NCBI GenBank assembly: GCA_023253175.1
Contig: JALRHH010000001.1
Location: 364,020-428,019 of the forward strand
Direction: 5' to 3'
DNA length: 64,000 nucleotides
Source of the DNA: Candidatus Saccharimonadia bacterium
GTDB lineage: Bacteria; Patescibacteriota; Saccharimonadia; Saccharimonadales; JALRHH01
Both the position numbers and the translations under genes were made by a program. Below, one piece after another: positions 5,962-43,090 of the stretch. Below the pieces are notes generated by a model. The model was given only the letters and a program-made list of their open reading frames with translations. It was not told where the DNA came from and searched no databases. Position 1 is the first letter of the stretch, and the number at the start of each line of letters is the position of its first letter.

Positions 5962-6845
5962 TACTTCTTCGCCTTTGCTTTCTTGGTTCGCGCTTTATAT
6001 GTACGCTTTTTTGGAGTAGCTTTTTTGACGGAAACTTTTTTGGCAGCGGGCTTTTCATCTGGCATGGTATTCATGAGCGATGAGACGCCCTTGAGATCAT
6101 CATCAACTGTCTTGCGCGGCGCAAAGTACATACTGCGTTTAAGCGTATCTGGGATCTCACCGAGCTTGGTTTGTTCATCAGCAACAATACTACCGTCATG
6201 CATAAAGACCACGCGGCTTGCGTACTTCGTCAAGGAAGGGTTGTGCGTCACCATAAGGACCGTATTGCCAGCTTTATGAATATCACTGAGTAGTTCCATT
6301 ACTAATCGGCTGCTTGCACTATCAAGGCTTCCGGTAGGTTCGTCAGCAATAATAATTTGTGGGTCATTAATCAGCGCTCGAGCAATCGCTACGCGCTGCG
6401 CCTGACCACCACTGAGCTGACTCGGATAGAAATACTCTTTTTCAGAAAGACCTACACGCTCTAACATGGCAGCAGCTTTTTTCAGCCGCTTTGTTTGTAG
6501 CATGCCCTTGTACGCAAGTGGCAAAGCCACATTTTCAATCACCGTCATACGCGGCAAGAGATTAAACGACTGAAATATAAAACCAACTTTGTCACGGCGG
6601 ACCCTTGCCCGGGATTGCTGGCGAAGCCGGGCAACATGACGACCATCAAGCATGTATTTCCCGTGTGTTGGACGATCGAGTAAGCCAATCACATTAAGTA
6701 AGGTTGATTTACCGGAACCGCTTGGACCCATGATAGCCACGAACTCACCGCGCTCAATAGAAAGCTCAACTTCGTCGAGCGCAATCGTCGTTGCATCGCC
6801 AAAGCCATACAACTTGTTGACATCTTCTAATAAAATCACCGGCAT
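5961..6845 (-). CDS. ABC transporter ATP-binding protein (MacB/LolD-like) with a Lys-rich C-terminal tail
   Basis: Walker A GPSGSGKST, signature LSGGQAQRVAIARAL, Walker B IIIADEPTGSLD. It overlaps the permease start by 1 nt. The extra tail is ...KPAAKKVSVKKATPKKRTYKARTKKAKAKK. Confidence 0.95.
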   Translation of the reverse strand: MPVILLEDVNKLYGFGDATTIALDEVELSIERGEFVAIMGPSGSGKSTLLNVIGLLDRPTHGKYMLDGRHVARLRQQSRARVRRDKVGFIFQSFNLLPRMTVIENVALPLAYKGMLQTKRLKKAAAMLERVGLSEKEYFYPSQLSGGQAQRVAIARALINDPQIIIADEPTGSLDSASSRLVMELLSDIHKAGNTVLMVTHNPSLTKYASRVVFMHDGSIVADEQTKLGEIPDTLKRSMYFAPRKTVDDDLKGVSSLMNTMPDEKPAAKKVSVKKATPKKRTYKARTKKAKAKK

Positions 6846-6930
6846 TTACCAGATAGTGTACCTTCTTTGGGGTGTAAGCTTCAAGGTGTAAAATCAACAT
6901 TTTTTCGGTATACTGTGCTGGTGCTAGCAC

Positions 6931-6990
6931 GGAGGGGTCGCCTAGTGGCCTATGGCGCACGCTTGGAAAGCGTGTTGGGTTTACGCCCTC
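6931..6990 (+). pseudogene. tRNA-Ser(GGA)-like 5' part with no T-stem 3' strand or acceptor 3' strand
   Basis: GGAGGGG-TC-GCCT-AGTGGCCTA-TGGC-G-CACGC-TTGGAAA-GCGTG, then variable-arm hairpin GGGT-TTAC-GCCC and CGAGG. The required 3' acceptor strand CCCCTCC is absent downstream. The anticodon stem-loop matches the intact tRNA-Ser at 7111 exactly. Confidence 0.6.
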
Positions 6991-7090
6991 GAGGGTGAAG
7001 ATCACCAGTGGTGATCTGCAAGGGAACCAACTCTTGAAAACTTGTTTTCAAAGATGTTGTTCCGGGGTCGCGGAACGTGACCGAATCCAG
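6986..7090 (+). repeat. Structured repeat, copy A (family also at 15222-15338, 46228-46340, 46353-46460)
   Basis: CCCTCGAGGGTGAAGATCACC-AGT-GGTGATCTGCAAGG, a long hairpin tipped by TGAAAACTTGTTTTCA (7035-7050), the GAA-loop hairpin GGTCGCG-GAA-CGTGACC, then GAATCC. Confidence 0.7.
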
Positions 7091-7110
7091 TAATATAAGG
7101 TTCACAGCGT

Positions 7111-7200
7111 GGAGAGGTGTCCGAGTGGTTGAAGGAGCACGCTTGGAAAGCGTGTGTGCAGGCAACTGTACCAGGAGTTCGAATCTCCTTCTCTCCGCCA
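7111..7200 (+). tRNA. tRNA-Ser (anticodon GGA), CCA encoded
   Basis: GGAGAGG acceptor, D-loop GAGTGGTTGAA, anticodon loop TTGGAAA, long variable arm, T-arm AGGAG-TTCGAAT-CTCCT, then TCTCTCC-G-CCA. Confidence 0.95.
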
Positions 7201-7437
7201 GAATAAAAACAGTCAGGCCATTTGTCTGGCTATTTTTATTCCCCACGAAGAAAAGATTCAAACCAGGCTCGATGGTACGGCCGGTGGTCGATCCGGACCG
7301 GATTGCCATGGCCTTGGGGTGATAGTCAGGAGAACCGCATCTTGACGTCATTTCTAGGTCGAATTGATTAACACGGAGTCCAGAATAGGGTTGACATACT
7401 TGATATTTCGGCGCAATGTGTATTTTAAGAGCTATAT

Positions 7438-7905: not shown

Positions 7906-7958
7906 AGCCTAACGCCGAGGCATAGCTTAGTCCCGTACCATTCTGCTATCATGTAAGC

Positions 7959-14658: not shown

Positions 14659-14707
14659 ATACGTATCATAGCAGATACCTACGTATCAGATCAGTCTAAC
14701 TCCCACG

Positions 14708-15183: not shown

Positions 15184-15213
15184 AAAACAAAAACACTCTG
15201 CTTTCGCAAAGTG
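15184..15213 (-). terminator. Rho-independent terminator closing the tRNA-Leu transcription unit
   Basis: On the minus strand, CACTTTGC-GAAA-GCAGAGTG is followed by TTTTTGTTTT. Confidence 0.8.
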
Positions 15214-15221
15214 CTTATGCT

Positions 15222-15338
15222 TGGTACCGCGGGCCGGACTTGACCTACCTTCGGCAGGCCCGAAATTTCGCCATTGAAAACAAGTTTTCATCGGAAAGTT
15301 TCCTTGCAGATTGCCACAGGCAATCTTCACAGCACGAG
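15222..15338 (-). repeat. Structured repeat, copy B, ending in a tRNA-like T-loop/acceptor/CCA
   Basis: On the minus strand: GTGAAGATTGCC-TGT-GGCAATCTGCAAGG, a hairpin tipped by TGAAAACTTGTTTTCA (15275-15290), GGCCTGCC-GAA-GGTAGGTC, then AAGTCCGGCCCGCGGTACCA. Confidence 0.7.
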
Positions 15339-15408
15339 CTAATGCTCACTGGATTTTGACGTTTACGGCACAACCTTCGGGTTGTGCGCCCTGGCGTTTA
15401 AAAATATG

Positions 15409-15493
15409 TGGTGGGCGAGGAGGGACTTGAACCCTCAATCCGTAAGGAACGCGATTTTGAGTCGCGCGCGTATACCAATTCCGCCACTCGCCC
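15409..15493 (-). tRNA. tRNA-Leu (anticodon CAA), CCA encoded
   Basis: GGGCGAG-TG-GCGGAATTGGTATACGCG-CGCGA-CTCAAAA-TCGCG, variable arm TTCCTTACGGATT, T-arm GAGGG-TTCAAGT-CCCTC, then CTCGCCC-A-CCA. Confidence 0.95.
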
Positions 15494-15514
15494 ATCATAT
15501 ATTTTTAAAATACT

Positions 15515-15552
15515 GCCCTGGCGGTATTGTCTACCAATTCCACCACCGCGGC
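15515..15552 (-). pseudogene. tRNA-Leu-like 5' fragment (acceptor 5' strand plus D-arm)
   Basis: The minus strand reads GCCGCGGTGGTGGAATTGGTAGACAATACCGCCAGGGC. GTGGTGGAATTGGTAGAC matches the intact tRNA-Leu (GTGGCGGAATTGGTATAC) with 2 mismatches. GCCGCGG is complementary to CCGCGGT-A-CCA at 15222-15232. Confidence 0.55.
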
Positions 15553-15579
15553 TTACTCAGAATCTAACGGGACCATTTT

Positions 15580-15652
15580 ACTATAGAAGTTGAACGGAGG
15601 GAAATGAAGCTTGCTTCAATTTTCCGAGTACTACGACGTAAACGAAGTTATA
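15580..15652 (-). promoter_or_regulatory. Promoter/operator-like module, copy 1 (copy 2 at 61346-61421)
   Basis: On the minus strand, -35 is TTCATT (15603-15608), followed by 17 nt and -10 TATAGT (15580-15585). The near-palindrome GAAGCAAGCTTC overlaps -35. The module is about 85 percent identical to the copy upstream of ftsI. Confidence 0.5.
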
Positions 15653-18987: not shown

Positions 18988-20079
18988 ATGGCGAAGCACG
19001 TCATAGAACTAAATGGCCAGAAATACGACGCAACCACCGGTCAGATAGTTTCAGCCCCCACCGAAACCAAAAAAGCCCAACCAGCCAGCGCAGTACCCAA
19101 GCATCTTGATGGATTCAGCCGACGTGCAGCACCAGCCCGCGCAGCGGCTATACCAAAGCCAGTACACGCCAAGACACAGAAATCGCAGACACTCATGCGC
19201 AAGGTTGTTAAAAAACCAGTTACGCCAGCTAAAGTCCACCATCAAGTTGCAGCACCAAGTGCAGCGCAAAAGACAGTCAAAGCGACCCCTAAATTTGACG
19301 TTGAAAAGCCAGGACGTACCATCCGGGCCAACAACATCAGCCAGAGCAATCTCATCAGCAAGTTCGGTAAGCAGCCTGCCAATATCAAGTCACAGATCAT
19401 GCCAGTGAAGGCAGCCCCTGTTGATGTAGCGCCCAAAAAACCAACCACCGCAACTGCAAAGTCTGCTCAGAAAGCGCCAGCAACAGCACCGGTCGTATCC
19501 TCAGTTGCGAAGCCAGACCGTAAAGACGTATTCCAGACTGCAATCGAAAATGCTGCGAGCCACAGTAGTCCAAAGCTTAAAAAAGCCAAAGTTCATCACC
19601 GCGTCGCAAAGAAGCTTCACGTCAGCCCACGCCTCATTAGCTTTACCGGCGTAACCTTGAGCATACTGGCAGTAGGAAGCCTACTGGCATATCAAAACAT
19701 GCCAGAAATCGCCATGAAGATCGCATCGACAAGGGCGGGACTGAATGCAAGCCTACCGGCATATCAACCTTCAGGTTTTGCGCTGGCCGGACCAATCAAA
19801 TATGACAGTGGTGAAGTAACGCTTAACTACAAATCAAACAGCGACCAGCGAGCGTTTAATGTGGTGCAGAAGAATTCTTCCTGGAACAGTGAAACACTGC
19901 TCGAAAATTTCGTAGAGACAAATAGCCAGCCGTACCAGACATTCCAAGCAAATGGCCGTACCATCTATATATATGACGGCAATAAAGCGACTTGGGTAGA
20001 TGGCGGTGTCTGGTACAACATTGACGGTCAGGCAAACCTCAACAGTGATCAGCTCCTCAAGATTGCTGAAAGTCTTTAG
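18988..20079 (+). CDS. Membrane-anchored protein: basic Ala/Pro/Lys-rich N-terminal region, one TM helix, DUF4367-like C-terminal domain
   Basis: 363-aa ORF with TM helix ISFTGVTLSILAVGSLLAY. The C-terminal globular part resembles anti-sigma-associated DUF4367. Weak assignment made by eye. Confidence 0.55.
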   Translation: MAKHVIELNGQKYDATTGQIVSAPTETKKAQPASAVPKHLDGFSRRAAPARAAAIPKPVHAKTQKSQTLMRKVVKKPVTPAKVHHQVAAPSAAQKTVKATPKFDVEKPGRTIRANNISQSNLISKFGKQPANIKSQIMPVKAAPVDVAPKKPTTATAKSAQKAPATAPVVSSVAKPDRKDVFQTAIENAASHSSPKLKKAKVHHRVAKKLHVSPRLISFTGVTLSILAVGSLLAYQNMPEIAMKIASTRAGLNASLPAYQPSGFALAGPIKYDSGEVTLNYKSNSDQRAFNVVQKNSSWNSETLLENFVETNSQPYQTFQANGRTIYIYDGNKATWVDGGVWYNIDGQANLNSDQLLKIAESL

Positions 20080-20093
20080 CCGGCTTACCTAAC

Positions 20094-20124
20094 TTGCGAT
20101 TTTACACTTTCATGCTATTATAAT
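20094..20124 (+). promoter_or_regulatory. Sigma-70-like promoter in front of the structured region upstream of gltX
   Basis: TTGCGA (20094-20099), then TATTAT/TATAAT (20116-20124) at 16-19 nt spacing. Confidence 0.45.
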
Positions 20125-20160
20125 ATTGCAAATCGAGAGACTTTTCGGTTTTTGCACTTT

Positions 20161-20673
20161 TGCAGACGTTTTGACCCCTCAGGCTGCAGGGCTGGCGACA
20201 CGGACAATCCCGTCCACATAAATCAAGGTGTGTTGTCAGTCCTGCTGTAGACGGGTGTTGTGATCTGTCGGTGTCCCCCCGGCAAGAGAACCGCACTCGA
20301 GGAGTGGGCCGGCATCGTTACTACTACTACGATGAGCCGCAGGGCATACCCGCGCCCGGCCCACTCCGTACCACCCCTAAGGAAATGATAGAGACCGGTG
20401 AGCCCGATGTTGCCCATATTGCATATGGTGTGCAAAGAGCACGAAGGCCGTCCAACGGTACCGCTCCGTCGGGCTCACCTCTCTTAAAACCCCAAGTCTG
20501 GGTGGGTAGCGTAAAAGGTATGTTGAAAAGGCAACTAGTCACTAGTGTCCGTACCAAGCCTAGCACCGGCAAGTGCGAACGGCTTCGCTACCCAACCTGC
20601 CATTTTGGCGAAAGACAGTTGGTCGAGCTTATGCTCCCACATCCTTCCGCCAAAACCCCGAAAAACGTCTGCA
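20161..20673 (+). ncRNA. Candidate large structured RNA of unknown family
   Basis: Closing helix 20161-20172/20662-20673 (12 bp). Internal perfect helices 20301-20312/20356-20367 (12 bp) and 20397-20407/20469-20479 (11 bp), plus 20500-20511/20586-20597 (11 of 12). Several nested hairpins. GC-rich with no credible ORF. Confidence 0.55.
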
Positions 20674-20756
20674 GTACCTATCAGAATTCACGAAGCATCG
20701 TGGCTTGTGCAAGGTAGCATTCCCATAACAGGGGTAATCTGGTAAACTACCTAACG

Positions 20757-22187
20757 ATGAACAAACCCGTTAGAACCAGATTCGCCCCATCACCAACCGG
20801 ACTCCTCCATGTCGGCGGTATACGAACCGCGCTTTTTGCGTGGCTATACGCCCGACAGAATAATGGCCAATTCATCCTACGATTCGAAGACACCGATAAA
20901 GCCCGCGAAAAGGATGGCGCGCGCGAACACCTTATTCAGAGCCTACGATCCCTGGGGCTACAGTATGATGAAGGACCCGATATCGGCGGACCCCACGCAC
21001 CCTACATTCAAAGCGAACGTCTAGAGATTTATAAGCAGTGGGCACAGCGCCTTATTGACAGTGGACGCGCCTACGCAGATCCATATTCACCAGAAGAGGT
21101 CCAGGCGTTCAGGGACCAGGCCAGAGCAGAGAAGAAGCCATTCTTGTATCGAAACCACCGGCCAGAAAACCCAAAAGCATGGGACGGCAGCACACCTCTC
21201 AGATTCAAGTCAGACCCCAAAGCCTACACCTGGAACGACGCAGTTATCGGTGACGTCAGTACAGGTCCAGAAGTTATTGACGACTTCATCCTCATAAAAT
21301 CCGATGGCTACCCGACCTATAACTTCTGTCATATTGTTGATGATGCCGAAATGGAAATTACCCATATTTTCCGCGGGCAAGAATTTATTGCCAGCGTGCC
21401 AAATTATTTAAACCTGTACGAAGCACTTGGGCTCCAGCCACCTGTAATGGCCCACATGCCACATATCATGGCCGAAGGCGGAAAGCGTAAGCTAAGCAAG
21501 CGCGATGGCGCAAAGGACGTACTCGATTACATCCGTGAAGGGTACCTGCCAGAAGCACTTCGCAGCTTTATTGCGACCCTTGGATGGAACGATGGCACAG
21601 AGCAAGAAGTATTCACCACCGATGAACTCATTGCGAAATTCTCGCTTAATCGTATCGGCAAGAGCGGAGCACTCTTTGATGAACGCCGTCTAAATTGGGT
21701 AAATGGATCATTCATTCGTGAGTTATCACTGGACGAACTATATGAGCGCAGCAAATCGTATCTTCCCAAAAGCGCAGCTTCTTTTGACGAAGCATACAAA
21801 AAACAAGTCGTTGGCCTCGCACAGGAGCGGCTTAAGTACTTTGCAGAACTACCAGAACTCACTGATTTCTTCTTTGAAGATCTTCCGGTAAATCCAGAAC
21901 TCATGAGCGGCCACAAGCAACTAAAAAAAACTGAACCACAAGAACTAAAACAACTTCTCGAATCAGCACTTGAAACAATTTCGGAGAGCAGCTTTACGGT
22001 AGATGATCTGACCACTAGGCTCAACCAGCTCCTCGAAGCAAGTGGCCAAAAGCCAGCTGTACTATTCAGCCTGATTCGTATCGCCACTACGCAGGCACCA
22101 AATAGCCCGGGGCTCGCCGACACGCTCGCCGTATTAGGAAGAGAAACAACGCTTCGCCGTATAAAATCACAGTTAGCCTCATTTTAA
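20757..22187 (+). CDS. gltX: Glutamate--tRNA ligase
   Basis: RFAPSPTGLLHVGGIRTALF (HIGH region) and KLSKR (KMSKS region). Full-length class I GluRS layout. Confidence 0.97.
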   Translation: MNKPVRTRFAPSPTGLLHVGGIRTALFAWLYARQNNGQFILRFEDTDKAREKDGAREHLIQSLRSLGLQYDEGPDIGGPHAPYIQSERLEIYKQWAQRLIDSGRAYADPYSPEEVQAFRDQARAEKKPFLYRNHRPENPKAWDGSTPLRFKSDPKAYTWNDAVIGDVSTGPEVIDDFILIKSDGYPTYNFCHIVDDAEMEITHIFRGQEFIASVPNYLNLYEALGLQPPVMAHMPHIMAEGGKRKLSKRDGAKDVLDYIREGYLPEALRSFIATLGWNDGTEQEVFTTDELIAKFSLNRIGKSGALFDERRLNWVNGSFIRELSLDELYERSKSYLPKSAASFDEAYKKQVVGLAQERLKYFAELPELTDFFFEDLPVNPELMSGHKQLKKTEPQELKQLLESALETISESSFTVDDLTTRLNQLLEASGQKPAVLFSLIRIATTQAPNSPGLADTLAVLGRETTLRRIKSQLASF

Positions 22188-22266: not shown

Positions 22267-23733
22267 ATGGTCAAAAAAGCTCTGCACAAAAACTATGTGC
22301 TCTTAATCATCGCGGTCGCACAGTTCATGGTAGTACTTGATACTTCGATCGTGAACGTGGCGCTGCCGTCAATCTTCCATGGACTTGGCTATGCCAGCGA
22401 AAGTAGCCTACAGTGGGTTGTTACGGCCTATACATTGGCGTTCGGTGGGTTCCTACTTCTCGGTGGCCGTGCGGCTGACCTATTTGGTCGTAAGAAAATG
22501 TTTATGTACGCCGTTGCAGCCTTTACCGTTATGTCACTACTCTGTGGTCTTGCGCAGACCAGCACCCAGATGAATGCGCTCAGGGCGCTTCAGGGTCTTT
22601 CGGCAGCCTTTATGTCACCAGCTGCGCTATCTATCATCCTGACGACCTTTAAGGAAGGCAAGGAGCGCGCAAAAGCCCTCAGTGTCTGGGGTGCCGTTGC
22701 TGCCGGTGGAGCAGCAGCCGGTGTACTATTTGGTGGTATTTTGACTCAGTATCTTGACTGGCGCTGGAACTTCTTTGTAAACGTACCTGTTGGCATCGCT
22801 GTGTTCTTAGCAGCCCGTTGGTACGTACCCGAAAGTAAGGCAGATCTTGACCACCAAAAGCTTGATTTGCCAGGTGCAGTCAGCGTTACCGCAGGACTTA
22901 TCGCACTTGTATATGCAATCACGCTCGCACCAGACAAGGGCTGGGGTAGCAGCGAAACACTGGGCTTCCTCGCATCATCTGTAGTGCTGCTTGGCTTCTT
23001 CCTCTGGAACGAGGCGCGTAGCAAACATGCACTCATGCCGCTGAGTATCTTCAAGATCGGTAACGTAGCGGGCGCAAACGCAGCACAGTTGCCAATGATC
23101 GCTGCTATGTTCTCGGTGTTCTTCTTTGTGTCACTATATGTGCAAACAATCCTTGGCTTCTCGCCTGTCCGAACTGGACTCAGCTTCTTGCCAATTCCAT
23201 TCGTCATTGGACTCATCTCATCACAAATGCCAAAGGTTATTCACAAATACGGATATAAACTACCACTTGTAACCGGACCACTCTTTGTGTCCCTAGCACT
23301 ATTCCTCATGTCACGAATCACCGTGGACGGAAACTACTTTACTGACGTATTGCCTGGACTCATTCTGATGGGAATTGGTATGGGACAAGTATTTATATCC
23401 GTAACCATTGCTGCAACGGCTGGCGTCCCAGCCAAGGAGTCAGGTCTTGCCTCGGGCATGCTTAATACCTCACAGCAGATTGGTGGCGCACTCGGACTCG
23501 CGATCCTATCAGGTATCGCCACAGCTGGCGCAAAGGCTTACCAGGTCAATAACGTACAACTGCCTGCAGATCCAGAAAAGGCTCAGCAGCTCATTGCCGC
23601 CGCAGCGCAAGTTAATGGCTTCCAGGATGCACTATTTGTAGCAGCGTTCTTCCCGCTGATCACTTCTGCTGTTGCACTCTTCTTTATTCGCCACTACAAG
23701 ACTGACGACTCGGCCGCAGCCATTCACGTCTAA
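22267..23733 (+). CDS. MFS transporter, DHA2 (EmrB/QacA-like, 14-TMS)
   Basis: LDTSIVNVALPSI, GGRAADLFGRKKMF, and about 14 hydrophobic segments. Confidence 0.9.
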   Translation: MVKKALHKNYVLLIIAVAQFMVVLDTSIVNVALPSIFHGLGYASESSLQWVVTAYTLAFGGFLLLGGRAADLFGRKKMFMYAVAAFTVMSLLCGLAQTSTQMNALRALQGLSAAFMSPAALSIILTTFKEGKERAKALSVWGAVAAGGAAAGVLFGGILTQYLDWRWNFFVNVPVGIAVFLAARWYVPESKADLDHQKLDLPGAVSVTAGLIALVYAITLAPDKGWGSSETLGFLASSVVLLGFFLWNEARSKHALMPLSIFKIGNVAGANAAQLPMIAAMFSVFFFVSLYVQTILGFSPVRTGLSFLPIPFVIGLISSQMPKVIHKYGYKLPLVTGPLFVSLALFLMSRITVDGNYFTDVLPGLILMGIGMGQVFISVTIAATAGVPAKESGLASGMLNTSQQIGGALGLAILSGIATAGAKAYQVNNVQLPADPEKAQQLIAAAAQVNGFQDALFVAAFFPLITSAVALFFIRHYKTDDSAAAIHV

Positions 23734-23754
23734 ATCTCTTAGTAAAGATATGTA

Positions 23755-23782
23755 AAAGACCTCCGTATCCGGAGGTCTTTTG
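23755..23782 (+). terminator. Rho-independent terminator (A-run upstream, so potentially bidirectional)
   Basis: AAAA-GACCTCCG-TATC-CGGAGGTC-TTTT. Confidence 0.8.
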
Positions 23783-23993
23783 TAATCTTTCATCCTTTTG
23801 GATCATACCCCATTGAGGTATGAGGTCCTTCATTCGGAACATAATTTTGAGCAAGTTCAAAATATACGCTACCTCATTCGAGACCCTCATCAGTACAAAC
23901 ACGCATTTGTATAGATTACGTGAGGTGGGTGGGTCCGGCGACAGGGCATTATAGCCATATATGTCGCCGGACCACACCGCACCTCTTCAGGAG

Positions 23994-24830
23994 CTAGCTG
24001 CCCAGCTTGCCGGCCAGCCAGATCAGCTCGTGCCAGTAGATGTCCGGACGCATGTACAGGTCGTGCGCCAGACCCGGCACTGCAGTCAGCGTGAACGAAG
24101 ACTTCGCGCTCATCCTTGCGCCGATGGCACCAGCCGGAGGGAAGGTGAGCGTACGCCCATCGATCCAGGTGTTGCCACCGTTGTACGGAACGACCGCGTC
24201 CAGTCCACCGTGCCACTGGGCGAGATTGACGCCGTCCTTGTTGCAGGGACCGGTGTAGGTGCCCGCGAACGAAGCCGCCGCCTTGAAGACGTCCGGTCGC
24301 TCGCACGCCGCCTTGTGGCTGAGCATACCGCCATTGGAGTCGCCCATCAGACCCACACCGCTGCGCTTCACGCCGTAGTCCACGTCGATCTGCTCGACCG
24401 CCTTGACCAGGTAGCCGACGTCGTCGACCCGGGTCTCGTAGGTGCAGCAAATGCCGCTGTCCCAGCGGAGCGTACCACCCTTGCTGACCGAGTAGACGAA
24501 GATGACGTTCGGCCAGATCGCCGCCAGGTTGTTGAGCGCCGCCGTGGCATTGCTCTGGCCCTCCTGCGTTCCGGCGGGGTGCGAGTAGATGACGAGCGGC
24601 CTCGGCTGCGCGATGCTGTCGACACACGCCTGCTCCGTCGCCGGTGCGCAGGTAGGAACGCGCGCGTAGAACACACGTCCGTCGTCCTGCGTGAACTGCT
24701 TGACCTCCCAGCCGTTTGTGACTGCGGCCGCACTTGCTCCTACCGGAACCGGCACAACCGCCTGGACGAAGATGCTCGCTACACTCACACTGAGCACAGC
24801 GATCAACCTACGAATCATGACAATCACCAT
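23994..24830 (-). CDS. Secreted esterase, PHB-depolymerase/LpqC-like alpha/beta hydrolase (high-GC island)
   Basis: Signal peptide MIRRLIAVLSVSVASIFVQA and nucleophile elbow GDSNGGM. Of the many overlapping ORFs here, this is the only frame with a protein-like sequence. Confidence 0.75.
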   Translation of the reverse strand: MVIVMIRRLIAVLSVSVASIFVQAVVPVPVGASAAAVTNGWEVKQFTQDDGRVFYARVPTCAPATEQACVDSIAQPRPLVIYSHPAGTQEGQSNATAALNNLAAIWPNVIFVYSVSKGGTLRWDSGICCTYETRVDDVGYLVKAVEQIDVDYGVKRSGVGLMGDSNGGMLSHKAACERPDVFKAAASFAGTYTGPCNKDGVNLAQWHGGLDAVVPYNGGNTWIDGRTLTFPPAGAIGARMSAKSSFTLTAVPGLAHDLYMRPDIYWHELIWLAGKLGS

Positions 24831-24996: not shown

Positions 24997-27591
24997 CTAT
25001 CTAAGTTTGATCTCAGCGCCGTTATCCGTAATGGTCGGCTGACTGGGATCTACTGGCTTCTTTTTGCGGCTCCGGGTACGCTTACGCTTTTTCTTAGGCG
25101 CCTCGGCTTCGCCAACCGTATGAACTAGGGATGGACGGGCATTTATTTGTGCCTCGGTCTCGGGCACGACAGTCGTTACGTCCTCGACATTCTTGAAGGT
25201 TTCTTTAGATGGTTTGGCTTTGGGTTGGGGTTTCGGTTGTTTTGGCTGGCTAGTAGGCTTGGGCGTCTCTGTAATATAACGACCGTGCATAAATGTCTCT
25301 ATCTCGCCGCGGCCTACCGCATAATTCTGTCGGCTCTGCGCAACGATGTAGCTACTGAAATCTGGTGGTTCAGGCGGAATTGCCATCGTAGTGCCAGAAA
25401 ATGCCTGAGCCTTTTCTCCATTAATCGTCATGCTAATCACGAAGTGGCGATTATGCATGTGCACCATGTCGTGCTCTTCGAACTTCGGCTCAAAGTATTT
25501 CAGCATCACGCGGGCATCGTCGGCACTCGTCCTGAACGATACGATACAACCGACGTTTCCAAAGACTGCATCTTTGACTTCCTGGGACATCTGCGCGGTG
25601 TACTGGTTAGCGACTGTCAGGTTTAGGGCATATTTACGGGCTTCTGACAAAATGACCGCAAATGAATCCGTTGCAAAGTTCTGGAATTCGTCAACGTATA
25701 GGTAGAACGGAATGCGGTCCTTCTGGTCCATATCAGCCCGAGACATAGCACCCATCTGCACTTTGGTTACCAGCAAAGAACCGAGCAAGCTTGCGTTATC
25801 TTCACCAATCAGTCCACGGGACAGGTTGACGATCAGGATCTTGCGGTTGTCCATAATTTCACGGATATTAAAACTGCTCTTTGGCTGGCCGATGATATTA
25901 CGTACGATTGGGTTAGCCGTAAACGCACCGACCTTGTTCAGTACCGGCGCCACCGCTTCGGCTGCAAACTTGTCGTTCCAGCTCGCGAACTCGACGGTCC
26001 AGAAATTACGAACCACTGGGTCTTCAACATATGACAAAACTTCGTTCCTAAACTTTTTATCAGTCAGGATACGAGTAATGTCGAGCATAGTGGCGTTCGG
26101 GTAATCGAGCAGCGCTAAAAGACTGTACCGAAGGATATACTCAAGCCGTGGACCCCACGATTCAAACATTCGCTTCAGGACGCCAATCAATTCAGAACAG
26201 GTATGTGTTTTGAGCTTTGGATCAGTGACCTCCATTGGATTAAAGGCAATAGGGAAGTCAGTGTCGGCGGGATTAAAGTAAATGACATCGTTAATACGGT
26301 GTTCGGGAATTCGCTTGAGGATACTCAGTGCATAGTCACCATGCGGATCGATTACTGCAAAGCCGTAAGGGCTGTAGATATCAGAAATCGTCAGAAGCTC
26401 CAGCATACCAGATTTACCAACACCAGTTTGTCCAATGATGTACATGTGCCTATTACGGTCCGATCGCGGCATACCAAAGATTGTGTTATGCCCACGAAAG
26501 TTCGTAATTGCGATCGGGCTGACCTCATGCTGATTAGCCTGTGTCGCAATCGGTAGGGTAGCGGGGGGTTCAGCGGTCTTGGCGCTTGCCCAGAGAATGT
26601 TTGGAGTTTCTACGTTGGTGTGCGGCAGATGGTATAGACTGGCGACCTCTTCAATATTGAGCACAAAGCCGCGCTTCGGGAAGGCTCGGCGACGATACAT
26701 ATCAACATCATACTCACTTGACGTGTAGGTCTTTTGTGCAAAGCCATTTAGATACGTCGTATTGAACTGTTTGAAGCTGGCGGTGATCGCCTGCATGCGC
26801 ATTCTCGCCTGAGGCTGGTTGGCGCCGCGGTAGACGATACGAACGACCACTTCGTAGGCCAGCTTGTGAGATTTTTCCTCTGCCGCATTGGCGCGCGCGG
26901 ATTCATGCTCTGCAAGCTTTGGTGCGCTAGTGTCAGATTCTGGCGGTGCCCATAGTGCCTTAAATAGTCCCTTGGTGCTTGTCTTGCCGCCGCGTATGCT
27001 TGCAGCGTAGCTTTCACTCTTTTTGTACCAGTTATCAAGCGCAGGTCGGACCACTACCTGCATCCACGCTTCTTCATTTGCATCGAACTGGGCGAGCGTC
27101 GCAGTTATTGCCGCTAAGGGATCAACCTCAAAACTCGGAAAGGTCTTAACGGGCAATGCCTCATTGGCAGTCAGTTTTAGCTCGGTACAGAGTGCGACGT
27201 TTTCCGCATGCACATCCGTAATTGTATAATCAGGCACTTCGCTGATATGAACTGTCGGGTACTGGGCATAGATCTGCTCCTCCACAAAGCTCTTCAGGTA
27301 CTGTGGAACCCACACATAAAAGCCAATTCGCTTCGCCTTAACTGCAATCTCGAAACTAACGCGTTCACGCGTGCTTTTAGAGCCTAAAAAGGTGGCCTGA
27401 CTACTGAGCAGCAAGCCATGTAAACTTGCCAACATTTGCTCGGCGGCAAGCTCTTTCTTCTCGTTGGTGCGAGGCACCTGGAGAAGCAGCACTGAGCCAG
27501 CTTCCGGCTCTGATACGGCTTGGCTTTTAGAAAGTTTCATTACTAGATGTAAGTATACGCGCTTTAGGGGGCGCGGCGCAATCATAAGCAT
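24997..27591 (-). CDS. T4SS coupling-protein-like (TraD/VirD4/TrwB-type) P-loop ATPase with a Lys/Pro-rich tail
   Basis: Walker A GQTGVGKSG and Walker B-like FYLYVDEFQNF, plus AVIDPHGDY. The tail is ...KPQPKAKPSKE...APKKKRKRTRSRKKKP. The start is uncertain; an alternative ATG lies at 27540. Confidence 0.8.
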   Translation of the reverse strand: MLMIAPRPLKRVYLHLVMKLSKSQAVSEPEAGSVLLLQVPRTNEKKELAAEQMLASLHGLLLSSQATFLGSKSTRERVSFEIAVKAKRIGFYVWVPQYLKSFVEEQIYAQYPTVHISEVPDYTITDVHAENVALCTELKLTANEALPVKTFPSFEVDPLAAITATLAQFDANEEAWMQVVVRPALDNWYKKSESYAASIRGGKTSTKGLFKALWAPPESDTSAPKLAEHESARANAAEEKSHKLAYEVVVRIVYRGANQPQARMRMQAITASFKQFNTTYLNGFAQKTYTSSEYDVDMYRRRAFPKRGFVLNIEEVASLYHLPHTNVETPNILWASAKTAEPPATLPIATQANQHEVSPIAITNFRGHNTIFGMPRSDRNRHMYIIGQTGVGKSGMLELLTISDIYSPYGFAVIDPHGDYALSILKRIPEHRINDVIYFNPADTDFPIAFNPMEVTDPKLKTHTCSELIGVLKRMFESWGPRLEYILRYSLLALLDYPNATMLDITRILTDKKFRNEVLSYVEDPVVRNFWTVEFASWNDKFAAEAVAPVLNKVGAFTANPIVRNIIGQPKSSFNIREIMDNRKILIVNLSRGLIGEDNASLLGSLLVTKVQMGAMSRADMDQKDRIPFYLYVDEFQNFATDSFAVILSEARKYALNLTVANQYTAQMSQEVKDAVFGNVGCIVSFRTSADDARVMLKYFEPKFEEHDMVHMHNRHFVISMTINGEKAQAFSGTTMAIPPEPPDFSSYIVAQSRQNYAVGRGEIETFMHGRYITETPKPTSQPKQPKPQPKAKPSKETFKNVEDVTTVVPETEAQINARPSLVHTVGEAEAPKKKRKRTRSRKKKPVDPSQPTITDNGAEIKLR

Positions 27592-37369: not shown

Positions 37370-37560
37370 CAATCTCACGGGGAATCAGCCTTTGGCTGGA
37401 AACTGCGTCGCTTACTCGATGCAAGCATCTGCGTGAGCTTGCTATCCGTCGTCGCTTCGCTCCTTTGGGATAATCTGCAGCCGTGCTCGAAGCAAGCTTC
37501 TGTGCGCGACTTTGATTATCGCATCCCTTCGGGGTTCCATTTCACTCTGTGAAATGACCA

Positions 37561-37595
37561 TAGTAAAGGCCCCACGCAAGGTGGGGCCTTTACTA
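37561..37595 (-). terminator. Strong hairpin immediately 3' of tRNA-Glu
   Basis: 14-bp stem TAGTAAAGGCCCCA/TGGGGCCTTTACTA. No clear U-run. Confidence 0.55.
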
Positions 37596-37670
37596 TGGTG
37601 ACCTCACGGGGAATCGAACCCCGATTGCCAGGATGAGAACCTGGTGTCCTAACCGTTAGACGATGAGGCC
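37596..37670 (-). tRNA. tRNA-Glu (anticodon CTC), CCA encoded
   Basis: GGCCTCA-TC-GTCT-AACGGTTA-GGAC-A-CCAGG-TTCTCAT-CCTGG-CAAT-CGGGG-TTCGATT-CCCCG-TGAGGTC-A-CCA. Confidence 0.95.
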
Positions 37671-37895
37671 AGATGCGCAGGAAAGCGATTTTGTGTTTAC
37701 ATAAAATCATTTTCCGAGCAGCTGGGCTGATCTCGAAGAGATAAGGCCAATTTGCTCAAATGTGCATTAGACCACAAAATACTATCACAACAGAGACAAA
37801 TAGTCTAGATGTCAAATAGACTATTAATTGCATTAAGTAATTTTAGATGGTATAATTATCACCAAGTTCAACACCGAGATAAGGATGTGAAGAAC

Positions 37896-38810
37896 ATGTA
37901 CCTTTTGTGGATGATTGCAGGATCTGTCATCTTGCTGCTCGTGATCGTGCTGGCACCAAGACGCCGCCGCGTCGCGATCAAGCGGATGCTCTTCGGCAAG
38001 GCCATCAACGACTGGCTGGCCTCGTTCTCCGAGGTTCCGCGCCAACTGGACAAGCTGGCCGCCGTACCTCCGCCACCAAAAGGGTGGGACACCCTGCGGG
38101 AGGTGAGGGACGCCCAGGCCGCGATCGAGCGAGCTCGCGAGCTGATCGAGGACGACGCCAGGTACCAGCGCCAGTTCGAGAAGCAGCAAGCCGAGATGGC
38201 CACCCAGGTGATCAACTTCCGCACCCGCGGCGACTACCTGGAGCACCATGACGAGCTGATCGAGCTCGCCAAGCAGCCGCACCTGATGTCCGACGCCGAC
38301 AAGAACTGGGTCGCCGAGCAGGTCAACGCCAACGCCGTCGCCAAGGCCGACCTCTTGCTCGACAGAGCCAGGAAGGGCGACCGGCAGAGCTTCATCGAGC
38401 TGATGACGTTCGCGCCGGAGTACAGTGCCTCCAGCGGACTCAACTGGCTGGACTTCTACTCCGGACAGACCGGCAAGCCCTACGAGGCACCGAAGGACTG
38501 GAACAAGCTGGTCGTGAGGTACTTCGAGAACCCCTCCCTGGACGACTTCCGGAACATCAGTGCGAATCGACTGACTCCGGGAGACTGTCGCCTGATGGCC
38601 GCCTCGGCGCTTCAGGAGGAGTCACTCGTACTCGGTCAGATCGTTCTCGCGCTCTGCAAGATCGGCAACAACGACTCCAGCTACAGGCCGAGCACCAGCT
38701 TCCCTTGGCGGGACGAGATCGGTGCCGTACTCCTGGCCGACGTCACCAAGATGGTTCGCCGGCTGCAGAAGCAGGAGCAGGTCGCCTTCAGCCACACCAC
38801 AACTGAATAG
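37896..38810 (+). CDS. Membrane-anchored hypothetical protein (high-GC island)
   Basis: I prefer the ATG at 37896 (AAGGA upstream). The GC shift begins there. The N-terminal TM helix is LLWMIAGSVILLLVIVLA. The track ORF starts at 37809. Confidence 0.6.
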   Translation: MYLLWMIAGSVILLLVIVLAPRRRRVAIKRMLFGKAINDWLASFSEVPRQLDKLAAVPPPPKGWDTLREVRDAQAAIERARELIEDDARYQRQFEKQQAEMATQVINFRTRGDYLEHHDELIELAKQPHLMSDADKNWVAEQVNANAVAKADLLLDRARKGDRQSFIELMTFAPEYSASSGLNWLDFYSGQTGKPYEAPKDWNKLVVRYFENPSLDDFRNISANRLTPGDCRLMAASALQEESLVLGQIVLALCKIGNNDSSYRPSTSFPWRDEIGAVLLADVTKMVRRLQKQEQVAFSHTTTE

Positions 38811-38821
38811 CCCAACTCGCT

Positions 38822-38887
38822 GTAGAGCCCAACCCGAAGGTGTGTATTTGCCCTTTGGCGAATACGTTCCTCCGGGTTGGGCTCTAC
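38822..38887 (+). terminator. Long hairpin closing the high-GC island
   Basis: 15-nt arms GTAGAGCCCAACCCG (38822-38836) and CGGGTTGGGCTCTAC (38873-38887). Confidence 0.5.
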
Positions 38888-39013
38888 TTATATATGGGGG
38901 GTAAAAATCTCGGTTTTCTCCTATAGCGACATAAACATAACTGTTATAATACCTACAAGTACGTCCCTTGAGATAACTCCCTGGGTGGGAAACAGGGGAC
39001 GATATTTACAGAT

Positions 39014-40750
39014 ATGCAAGCAGTCAATCGTAAATGGTACATAGCCTACAGATGGGTCACGCTGGTGGTAGCGAGCTTGTTTTTGGTGCTCGGAATTATT
39101 GCCTGGACCGTCCCAGAACTGCTGCCGATTGCAAGTTTCAAGGATGTCAGTTACTTCAGTGGGGGACTAGCCATCTTAACAATTGTATATGCGATCTTTG
39201 GCTACGATAGGGTTGCAGCCAAACGATCACACCTCGAATCAATGCTGATCCTTGCTATGGTGCAAGCGACACTGACGCTCAGCCTTGTCCAGACAACCGG
39301 CAAGATGCAGTCCATCTTCCTCATATGGTGGGGCATTATGTCGTTTATGGCACCGATCTTCGGCATCTACGGCAGCGGTGGAACCGCATTTGTCAGCGTT
39401 ATTTACTTCATCCTAATGTCAACAAACACCGAGGGTCATACTGATTACACAGTTCAGAATTTGGCAATTCTTGGCTCTGTCCTAATCGCTACAGGCATCG
39501 GGCATCTGTTCTGGAAACGCTTTTTTGTTGATTCCGAGACAGAGAAAGTCGCGCTGTTATCTGGTGAACTTAAAGCTAACCAAAAACAGTCAGAGATCCT
39601 CGTACAGGCCCTGACAGACGGCGTACTACTCGTAAGCCCAGACGGCACTATCACACTCATGAATCCCGCAGCAGCGCGCATGACAGGCTGGGAGGTCAGT
39701 GAAGGAACCGGGGCAGATAGCCGACTGGTTGTCTCGTTCAAAAAAGAAGACGGCTCTGATCTTGAAAAAGAAGAAAACCCTCTCGAACACATCATTAACA
39801 AGGGCGTCGGTGAAACTGCCACGTTGCAGCTCGTTCACCGCAGCAGTAGCTGGTTAATCGTATCCGTCGTCACATCACCGCTCGTTAACCCTAAAACCCA
39901 AGAAAACATCGGTGGTGTCATCGTGATCAGAGACATTAGCGCCACGCACCAATCCGATAAACAACGTGCAGAATTCATTAGTACAGCCAGTCACGAAATG
40001 CGTACGCCAGTTGCTGCTATCGAAGGTTATTTGCAGCTTGCCTTGAACGAAAAGGTATCGAAAATTGACCCTAAGGCCCGTGATTATTTAACAAAGGCGC
40101 TTGAGTCCACTCATCACCTTGGACAACTCTTCCAGGACCTTCTAACAAGTGCAAAAGCAGAGGATGGCCGCCTTGTCAGTCACCCGGAAGTTGTCGAAAT
40201 GGGTGAATACATCGAAAATCTGTCTGAATCGTTCAAATTCTCGGCTGAAAAGAAGGGGCTGCTCACCAATTTTGTCTTTGGTAAAAGTAGCACTGATGCA
40301 GAGCATGTGATTCGGCCGCTCTACTACGTAAATGTTGACCCGGATAGACTGCGCGAAGTTGTCACCAATCTTTTCGATAATGCGGTCAAATACACCCCAA
40401 GCGGCAAAATAACCCTAGGACTGACAGGTAATAATGATGTCATTCAGATTTTCGTCAAAGACACCGGTCCCGGCATTGCAGCAGAGGATATCCCACATTT
40501 ATTCCAAAAGTTCTACCGCGTTGATAATTCTGCCACCAGGACCATCGGCGGTACAGGTCTGGGTCTCTTCATTTGTAAGAAGATCATCGAGCTATACAAC
40601 GGCCGTATCTGGGCTGAGAGCGAGGTCGGCAAGGGTAGCACCTTCTACATTAACCTCCCAAGGCTAACCAACCAGCAGGCCGATACGCTTAGGCTACAAG
40701 GCTCCCAGCAGGCTCCGGCGCCAATCAGTTCATTAACCACGCCAGTCTAG
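39014..40750 (+). CDS. Sensor histidine kinase (multi-TM, PAS, HisKA, HATPase_c)
   Basis: H-box SHEMRTPVA, N-box NLFDNAVKYT, then DTGPGI and GTGLGLFI. Confidence 0.92.
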   Translation: MQAVNRKWYIAYRWVTLVVASLFLVLGIIAWTVPELLPIASFKDVSYFSGGLAILTIVYAIFGYDRVAAKRSHLESMLILAMVQATLTLSLVQTTGKMQSIFLIWWGIMSFMAPIFGIYGSGGTAFVSVIYFILMSTNTEGHTDYTVQNLAILGSVLIATGIGHLFWKRFFVDSETEKVALLSGELKANQKQSEILVQALTDGVLLVSPDGTITLMNPAAARMTGWEVSEGTGADSRLVVSFKKEDGSDLEKEENPLEHIINKGVGETATLQLVHRSSSWLIVSVVTSPLVNPKTQENIGGVIVIRDISATHQSDKQRAEFISTASHEMRTPVAAIEGYLQLALNEKVSKIDPKARDYLTKALESTHHLGQLFQDLLTSAKAEDGRLVSHPEVVEMGEYIENLSESFKFSAEKKGLLTNFVFGKSSTDAEHVIRPLYYVNVDPDRLREVVTNLFDNAVKYTPSGKITLGLTGNNDVIQIFVKDTGPGIAAEDIPHLFQKFYRVDNSATRTIGGTGLGLFICKKIIELYNGRIWAESEVGKGSTFYINLPRLTNQQADTLRLQGSQQAPAPISSLTTPV

Positions 40751-43026: not shown

Positions 43027-43090
43027 ATATATTTAAATATAATTATATCATACTTGTCAATAGTAGGTACCTCTGTTATACTAGTATCTA

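Follow-up and report, generated by a model that had tools for sequence, protein, structure and literature searches.

In the 64,000-nucleotide (nt) stretch of the Candidatus Saccharimonadia bacterium genome analysed here (the window), the aminoacyl-tRNA synthetase gene gltX is preceded by an element that we propose to be the gene of a large structured non-coding RNA. The putative RNA gene lies on the + strand at about positions 20127 to 20716 and is about 590 nt long. Being absent from Rfam and from the searchable literature, it appears to represent a new RNA family. Nine distinct versions of the element, all so far from one subgroup of Saccharimonadales, share the same order of parts at the same site, and their alignment indicates that compensatory substitutions have preserved the fold across lineages in which neutral sites have reached saturation. 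We put the probability that the element is a functional stand-alone RNA read from the + strand at roughly 0.55. An earlier note on this DNA had proposed a large structured non-coding RNA here, distinct from ribonuclease P (RNase P) RNA, transfer-messenger RNA (tmRNA), T-box leaders and group I and II introns. The searches with Rfam and ARAGORN, the lack of a conserved reading frame and the compensatory changes described below all agree with that proposal.

The minimum free energy (MFE) fold of 627 nt across this region had an energy of -254.8 kcal/mol, compared to -200.2 +/- 8.0 kcal/mol for dinucleotide shuffles (z = -6.8; none of 20 shuffles folded as well), and the corresponding z scores in two relatives, L002 and L040, were -9.6 and -7.5. 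All four helices named in the earlier note are present at the coordinates given there and are contained in this fold. The closing helix pairs TGCAGACGTTTT at 20161-20172 with AAAACGTCTGCA at 20662-20673; a 12-bp helix joins GGAGTGGGCCGG at 20301-20312 to CCGGCCCACTCC at 20356-20367; an 11-bp helix joins GGTGAGCCCGA at 20397-20407 to TCGGGCTCACC at 20469-20479; and 20500-20511 pairs with 20586-20597 at 11 of 12 positions. The structured region therefore stood as described, while its extent had to be refined from about 510 nt to about 590 nt, with a 5' hairpin and a 3' hairpin lying outside the closing helix.

The members have a common plan: a promoter (TTGCRA, 16-17 nt, TGnTATTAT), a 5' hairpin with AAAUC..GAGAGA, the clamp helix P1, a series of closed domains ending in domain F, and a 3' hairpin. 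In the window a consensus scan placed the promoter at 20094-20121 (+), with TTGCGA at 20094-20099 as the earlier note had it. The TATAAT at 20119-20124 that was formerly paired with this box would leave a 19-nt spacer, and a better -10 element is the TG-extended TATTAT at 20116-20121, which gives a 16-nt spacer. Transcription is predicted to start near 20127-20130. The 5' hairpin of the MFE fold (20127-20156, +) carries the conserved sequence AAAUCGAGAGAC and is found in every full-length member, with a helix that varies in sequence from AAAUCG/CGAUUU to AAUAAUCU/AGAUUAUU. It is followed by P1, a 13-bp helix recovered by both the fold and the alignments, in which UUGCAGACGUUUU at 20160-20172 (+) pairs with AAAACGUCUGCAG at 20662-20674 (+). 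The P1 core, GCAGACGUU/AACGUCUGC, is kept in eight members, with 96% of alignment cells paired; one G-C pair has become A-U in L204 and one U-A has become U-G in L202. In L195 (P1 at 2445-2460 and 2915-2930), a pair that is A-U in all other members is a U opposite a C, changed on both sides and unpaired, which could be an intermediate state or an assembly error.

P1 closes six helical domains in the window and from four to seven across the members, and the core that it encloses ranges from 324 nt in L002 to 515 nt in the window, since some members lack domains A and B or have them in reduced form. The domain-closing helices are near-perfect and 12-25 bp long. Domain A (20186-20245, +) is a 16-bp stem with three G-U pairs and a conserved apical hairpin, GGAC-AAUCCC-GUCC; in the alignment 7 of its 16 pairs (helix 5) have changed on both sides and 91% of cells are paired. 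Domain B (20252-20299, +) is a hairpin with the C-rich loop UGUCCCC and has an equivalent in L195, L198, L196 and L202. Domain C (20301-20367, +) is a three-way junction closed by the perfect 12-bp helix GGAGUGGGCCGG/CCGGCCCACUCC; at the same position L202 and L002 also have a three-way junction, with the different closing helices GGACCGACCGGC/GCCGGUCGGUCC and GACCGGUCGAUAGUAG/CUACUAUCGACCGGUC, respectively. Three small hairpins are enclosed by domain D (20381-20493, +), a long composite stem of which the perfect 11-bp helix 20397-20407/20469-20479 forms part. The equivalents of this domain in L195, L198, L196 and L202 are 87-104 nt long with two hairpins inside, and 4 of its 20 pairs (helix 13) have changed on both sides. 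Domain E (20500-20597, +) holds two hairpins and is closed by GGGUGGGUAGCG/CGCUACCCAACC, paired at 11 of 12 positions, a helix that has changed on both sides in L196 to GGGUGAGCCAGCG/CGCUGGCUCACCC.

Domain F (20603-20655, +; UUUUGG...GGUCGAGC-UUAU-GCUCCCA...CCAAAA) is the internal domain best conserved in sequence, and its module was recognised by a profile hidden Markov model (HMM) and a covariance model in all members. Only the 3' hairpin (20675-20716, +; CCAGAAUUCACGAA...UCGUG..UUGUG) is more conserved. It starts directly after P1, is 42-46 nt long in the members and occurs once in the window. Eight of its 15 pairs (helix 4) have changed on both sides with 98% of cells paired, and its inner helix switches among members from CACGA/UCGUG to UUCGUAA/UUACGAA. 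This hairpin probably forms or protects the 3' end of the RNA. No U run was found after it and no intrinsic terminator was called between it and gltX; neither an internal domain duplication nor tandem repeats were found in the RNA.

The MFE structure, derived from the window sequence alone, was mapped onto a MAFFT alignment of five members built from sequence only. With this structure 71% of cells were paired, compared to 37-43% in controls slid by 1-3 columns, and 43 pairs had changed on both sides, compared to 17-27 in the slid controls; none of 500 shuffles reached the paired and changed values. Eight members were compared over P1, domain F and the 3' hairpin. Here 92.6% of cells were paired, compared to 35-42% in the slid controls, and changes on both sides affected 13 of 34 pairs, compared to 2-5 in the controls. 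These tests cover five to eight sequences and are not of R-scape grade. We take an excess of compensatory pairs over controls as the mark of a conserved structured RNA, and the alignments show such an excess here.

Between the window and every relative, 59-68% of four-fold sites in gltX differ, which corresponds to saturation, and the RNA itself is 64% identical between the window and both L195 and L198. At such divergence an unselected set of hairpins would have decayed. Paired columns were more conserved than unpaired ones (56-66% vs 37-53%), therefore the constraint appears to lie mainly on the duplexes.

A protein-coding gene was ruled out, as there is neither a conserved reading frame nor a Pfam match. 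The open reading frame (ORF) at 20271-20717 (148 aa), which the earlier note had rightly set aside as unlike a protein, is not conserved even in the closest relative, L195, and has no match in Pfam. The longest ORFs of the members differ in frame and position, and similarity between translations is limited to the nucleotide-conserved 3' end, where it occurs in several frames.

The nine versions come from the window, L195, L196, L197, L198, L202, L204, L002 and L040, and all lie between a gene for a DUF4367 protein and gltX; copies identical to that of the window occur in several assemblies. A single-sequence search recognised only L002 and L040, and the closer relatives were collected through homologues of GltX. 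The relatives of the gltX gene of the window are nearly all from metagenome-assembled genomes of Saccharibacteria (order Saccharimonadales). GltX identity to the window is 92% in L195, 86% in L196 and L197, 84% in L198, 81% in L204 and 79% in L202. Profile HMMs of the 5' and 3' modules recovered every member that covers the module, including L204, which had been left out of the 3' model, and found nothing significant elsewhere in 80 related gltX loci; their other matches were weak (E >= 0.04) and fell in viral loci collected by the 3' hairpin pattern. A covariance model of the 3' module was applied to 81 other loci together with the window, L002, L040 and L204, about 1 Mb in all, and picked out only the latter four.

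The DUF4367 stop codon and the gltX start are 677 nt apart in the window, and the RNA cassette fits exactly between that stop codon and the gltX promoter. In most of 80 species-level gltX loci the gap between gltX and its upstream gene is only 30-60 nt, which bears out the remark in the earlier note that such an RNA is unusual in so compact a genome. In a rough neighbour-joining tree of GltX, the window groups with L195, L196, L197 and L198 in a carrier clade, to which L204 and L202 are added; L199 and L201, which lack the RNA, are nested next to L204 and L202, and L002 and L040 lie further out. This distribution fits an old element that has been lost several times.

Searches outside the collected loci gave no further members. 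A metagenome scan with the pattern CGTCTGC-N6-10-CAKARNNCAYRAANNNTYGTG returned a single chance match on a high-GC coding contig, under a pattern so strict that it misses L204 and L195. A scan of viral contigs with the 3' hairpin pattern gave 109 matches, none with a paired P1 strand upstream, and we regard these as chance matches. Four gltX loci from the viral collection were without the element, and blastn against phages and plasmids gave no match.

Unrelated but very stable inserts occupy the same DUF4367-gltX site in four loci of other Saccharimonadales lineages: L068 (5388-5988), L205 (1-575), L006 (3134-3410) and L065 (4162-4691). The insert of L068 has a z score of -13 and arms of 35-60 bp. 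We considered these inserts as distant homologues and rejected them, as they share no sequence, P1, 5' hairpin or 3' hairpin with the element and are more rod-like. Either the site is, as it seems, a hotspot of structured intergenic DNA, or the inserts are homologues that have diverged beyond recognition.

The comparison with known RNA families was negative. The Rfam scan suggested in the earlier note was run with Rfam 15 (cmscan, 4227 families) on both strands of 19900-20900 and gave nothing at E<=10. Over the whole window only three tRNAs reached the gathering score, and the element in seven homologous loci had no match at E<=1. The models included RNase P, tmRNA, 6S, signal recognition particle RNA, T-box, group I and II introns, OLE, ROOL, GOLLD, HEARO, raiA, CsrB/Rsm and small ribozymes. 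A weak match to the type III hammerhead at L002:9158-9200 (-) scored 24 bits against a gathering score of 48.5 (E 0.94) and is probably due to chance. A literature search turned up no account of an RNA of this kind in either Saccharibacteria or Patescibacteria.

Several families were considered individually and rejected. RNase P RNA has a conserved P4 and conserved regions CR-I to CR-V and is an essential gene in every genome; the element matches none of its models and is absent at this locus from most relatives, including L199 and L201. tmRNA combines a tRNA-like domain with a tag-peptide reading frame, and ARAGORN found only three tRNAs and no tmRNA in the window. An ORF-less group II intron is marked by 5' GUGYG, the AGC triad of domain V, a bulged A in domain VI and a genic or mobile context. 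The group II models of Rfam were unmatched, and the element, which lies between genes, opens with a hairpin downstream of a promoter.

T-box leaders deserved a closer look. These have a stem I with a specifier loop and an antiterminator whose T-box bulge (UGGN) competes with a terminator or with a helix that sequesters the Shine-Dalgarno sequence. The element shares with them an aminoacyl-tRNA synthetase gene downstream in the same orientation, a GGGUGG stretch and a 5' hairpin with GAG. Unlike in a T-box leader, however, the GGGUGG is paired in a covarying helix: the candidate T-box sequence, GGGUGGGUAGCG, is one strand of a covarying helix of 12-13 bp and not a bulge. The UGGN of domain F varies among members (UGGC, UGGU, UGGA). 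The element is also two to three times the size of a T-box leader, and gltX is leaderless with its own promoter. As RF00230 was unmatched at E<=10, and there is neither a terminator or sequestering helix nor a Shine-Dalgarno sequence or leader to sequester, the T-box was rejected.

With OLE, ROOL, GOLLD, raiA and HEARO the element shares a length of several hundred nt, many helices, covariation, a narrow phylogenetic range and discovery through an unusually long, GC-rich intergenic region. It differs in giving no match to their models at E<=10 and, according to Pfam and gene annotation of the window, in not adjoining tRNA, prophage or IscB/TnpB genes. Those RNAs moreover have many conserved unpaired nucleotides and short helices, whereas the element has near-perfect stems of 12-25 bp and variable loops and linkers. 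Its GC content is 0.547, or 0.565 in the core, compared to 0.49-0.50 in the two flanking genes and 0.482 in the window, and only 4% of 590-nt windows reach the value of the RNA; the earlier note was therefore right that the region exceeds its flanks, while the excess is moderate rather than clear.

A likeness of another kind is found with CsrB/RsmZ (GGA loops), RNAIII of S. aureus and RsaE/RoxS (C-rich loops). The C-rich loops of RNAIII and RsaE/RoxS pair with Shine-Dalgarno sequences. In all of these RNAs stable hairpins display a recurring single-stranded motif, and the G-depleted unpaired regions of the element would similarly keep motifs accessible. In contrast to them, the element has only 0-4 C-run loops per molecule, is larger, has a clamp helix and matches no Rfam model. 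The resemblance to decoy RNAs might indicate a mode of action and is not evidence of membership.

The element also recalls miniature inverted-repeat transposable elements (MITEs), repetitive extragenic palindromic (REP) elements and bacterial interspersed mosaic elements (BIMEs), which it resembles in the perfect 12-nt terminal inverted repeats formed by the P1 strands, its richness in hairpins and its patchy presence in close relatives. Elements of the MITE and REP kinds are spread over unrelated sites in many copies per genome, and their terminal inverted repeats are flanked by target-site duplications. The element, by contrast, is an ordered multi-domain unit of about 600 nt with its own predicted promoter and a structure that has survived saturated neutral divergence. 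It was found in one copy in 64 kb, and the orthologous site was the only place where it occurred in about 1 Mb of related DNA, with no duplication visible against the empty site of L201. A MITE or REP element was rejected on these grounds.

The unpaired bases have a marked composition. On the + strand they are roughly 33% A, 35% C, 24% U and 8% G (averages over eight members). CCC occurs in 16 of 65 predicted hairpin loops compared to 7.9 +/- 2.1 expected from loop composition, and GGG in none. A fold of long perfect stems and variable G-free loops, in which few junction nucleotides are conserved, does not resemble a ribozyme or riboswitch.

On the + strand, a promoter-like site lies 26-42 nt upstream of P1 in five of eight members at the stringency of the scan, with weaker sites in the other three, whereas no - strand promoter was found downstream of the 3' hairpin in any of the eight. 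Counted over P1 and the 3' hairpin, G-U cells number 8 and A-C cells 2. In the core helices, separate counts of G-U and A-C appositions gave 15 vs 12, 10 vs 7 and 46 vs 42. It is possible that long helices tolerate either mismatch, that the perfect duplex itself is selected, or that the constraint acts on DNA or on both strands. The + strand is our working assignment, with good confidence.

The relation to gltX was examined through the promoter of that gene. The box AACAGGGGTAATCTGGTAAACT, within 20727-20756 (+) and outside the RNA, has a -10 element that ends 8 nt before the ATG at 20757 and is of a leaderless type. Boxes of the form TCTGnTAnnnT lie 6-8 nt before four ORF starts in the window (7942-7952; 14665-14675, - strand; 20738-20748, gltX; and 43072-43082). 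This looks like the leaderless-type promoter of the organism, of the extended -10 type, and suggests that leaderless mRNAs are common in this genome. The box also stands directly upstream of gltX in relatives without the RNA, such as L201, L006, L020 and L043. The empty site of L201 reads stop codon, 3 nt, AACAGGGGTGTGCTAGACT, 8 nt, ATG, and in the window a matching arrangement of AACAGGGGTAATCTGGTAAACT, 8 nt and ATG follows directly after the RNA cassette. In L202 the box remains at gltX and the RNA is found about 450 nt farther upstream. Between them stands an ORF of 113 codons (L202:2576-2917) that has its own promoter-like site, is restricted to this lineage, lacks a match in Pfam and offers no clue to its function. 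A comparable additional ORF (151 aa) was called in the P0008 locus. No Shine-Dalgarno sequence precedes the gltX ATG. As gltX has its own promoter and neither a leader nor a Shine-Dalgarno sequence, read-through from the RNA promoter would give a poor gltX message.

These observations bear on the idea that the element acts in cis on gltX, either as a very long 5' leader that senses, for example, tRNA-Glu or temperature, or through read-through that occludes the gltX promoter (transcriptional interference). We consider this unlikely. It is true that the RNA lies immediately upstream of gltX in the same orientation in eight of nine members, that no intrinsic terminator separates the two in a genome that has such terminators elsewhere, and that the conserved GAGAGA of the 5' hairpin contains Glu codons. 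However, the same gene order is found in relatives without the RNA, and a constant position is expected from vertical descent alone. The leaderless-type promoter of gltX in these same relatives, the lack of a Shine-Dalgarno sequence on any read-through transcript and the gene inserted in L202 all speak against a leader, as do the unmatched T-box model and the change of GGGUGGGUAGCG and its partner on both sides. The perfect helices of 12-25 bp, moreover, show no sign of an alternative, switchable fold. A stand-alone RNA is more likely than a gltX leader because gltX keeps its own promoter and because L202 has a gene between the two.

Another possibility is that selection acts on DNA rather than RNA: the element could be a selfish or palindrome-rich insert at a permissive site, with arms kept by template switching (quasipalindrome correction), or a single-strand DNA element such as an origin. 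This would account for helices that are long and almost purely Watson-Crick, for mismatches without strand preference (the 15 G-U and 12 A-C above), for two strands that fold about equally well, for poorly conserved loops and linkers, for the patchy presence in relatives and for the unrelated stable inserts at the same site (L068, L205, L006 and L065). Nevertheless, it is improbable, as the element is present once in the window and nowhere else in about 1 Mb of related DNA, shows no target-site duplication at its boundaries against the L201 empty site, and resembles no phage, plasmid or viral contig. Local palindrome correction would not explain why domain order, helix lengths, promoter and terminal hairpins are kept at neutral saturation. 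The composition of the unpaired bases is strand-asymmetric (8% G vs 35% C), and G-U is preferred in P1 and the 3' hairpin. If an RNA is made, it could in principle be the - strand transcript, whose G-rich loops (GGGA, GGGG), some with GGA, are loosely like those of the CsrA-binding CsrB/RsmZ sponges. In five of eight members the fold of the - strand is at least as good as that of the + strand, the wobble counts do not favour the + strand, and UCC in 11 of 65 + strand loops (a manual count from the loop list) would read as GGA. We nonetheless regard this as highly improbable. The conserved promoters are on the + strand and none lies downstream of the 3' hairpin on the other; a - strand transcript would run antisense into the DUF4367 gene, and its unpaired bases, 35% G and 8% C, would favour misfolding. 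It would have only 0-2 GGA-type loops per molecule, where CsrB-type sponges carry far more, and no CsrB/Rsm model of Rfam matched either strand.

Several points weigh against the reading of the element as a functional stand-alone + strand RNA. The comparison includes only nine sequences, all at one locus. The RNA is missing at this locus from some close relatives, L199 and L201, which are nested among the carriers; it is thus dispensable, and a housekeeping RNA is therefore excluded. The wobble test is symmetric in the core helices, which is not what a structured RNA typically shows, and the two strands are about equal in how well they fold. Promoter, transcript ends and strand are all deduced from the sequence. 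None of the 65 loops is a GNRA or UNCG tetraloop, and no known tertiary motif was identified, without a dedicated search for pseudoknots, K-turns or tetraloop receptors. Finally, the genome uses intrinsic terminators elsewhere, such as the canonical one after the gene for a major facilitator superfamily (MFS) transporter (window 23750-23790; AAAAGACCUCCG-UAUC-CGGAGGUCUUUU), and has none between the RNA and gltX, so read-through into gltX is possible.

If the stand-alone RNA is real, it would be transcribed from its own promoter. As no intrinsic terminator follows it, the 3' end would arise through processing, or through factor-dependent termination with subsequent trimming as far as the 3' hairpin. 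P1 and the hairpins at either end would shield the termini and stabilise the RNA. The RNA could then act in trans as a rigid scaffold or decoy, in which long near-perfect helices present short loops and linkers that are rich in A and C, depleted of G and enriched in C-runs. Being unable to pair within the molecule, these loops and linkers would be free to bind a protein or a G-rich RNA at several sites. Among possible roles a scaffold or decoy is the most plausible, and we offer this mechanism tentatively, as a rather doubtful model built on the predicted structure. An alternative to a decoy would be a duplex-rich substrate for processing. More speculative still, and quite unlikely in this form, is a new class of large RNA, confined to epibiotic Saccharibacteria, that serves as a multivalent decoy: its rigid duplex arms would expose several C-rich, G-free single-stranded patches able to titrate a C-binding factor, such as the transcription terminator Rho, which loads at C-rich, G-poor sites, or to titrate G-rich RNA. 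The RNA might otherwise be a precursor with many hairpins from which RNase III would release small duplex RNAs, an option suggested because the stems appear to be under strand-symmetric selection for a perfect duplex.

The gltX gene (20757-22187, +) encodes a protein that matches tRNA-synt_1c in Pfam at 4e-87 together with an anticodon-binding domain. The DUF4367 gene (18988-20079) lies upstream on the same strand and is preceded on the opposite strand by a gene for a PEGA-domain protein; the MFS transporter gene is downstream of gltX. About 4 kb downstream of gltX lies the gene for a protein of the type IV secretion coupling-protein kind (window 24997-27591, -); its product has 864 aa and ATPase domains of the HerA/DUF87 and TrwB-like types, and an equivalent gene occurs in related loci. 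Elsewhere in the window, the intergenic region around tRNA-Glu(CUC) (37370-37808, -) is very stable (z = -7.0), with a perfect 19-bp hairpin directly 3' of the tRNA. A GC-corrected MFE scan of the window also marked 6800-7400, 15200-15600, 38600-39100 and 23700-24000.

Genome size in Saccharibacteria is about 1 Mb, of which very little is non-coding. An RNA of 450-600 nt that is kept through saturated neutral divergence in such genomes would imply a real function. New large classes of bacterial RNA are rare, and OLE, ROOL, GOLLD and HEARO have led to unexpected biology. The design of the putative RNA is itself unusual, with long perfect stems, variable G-free loops and no common tetraloops. 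A constraint on duplexes and not on junction nucleotides points to a scaffold, a decoy or a processing precursor rather than to a ribozyme or riboswitch. The candidate RNA is thus a concrete target for transcriptomics and genetics in a phylum in which few regulators are known.

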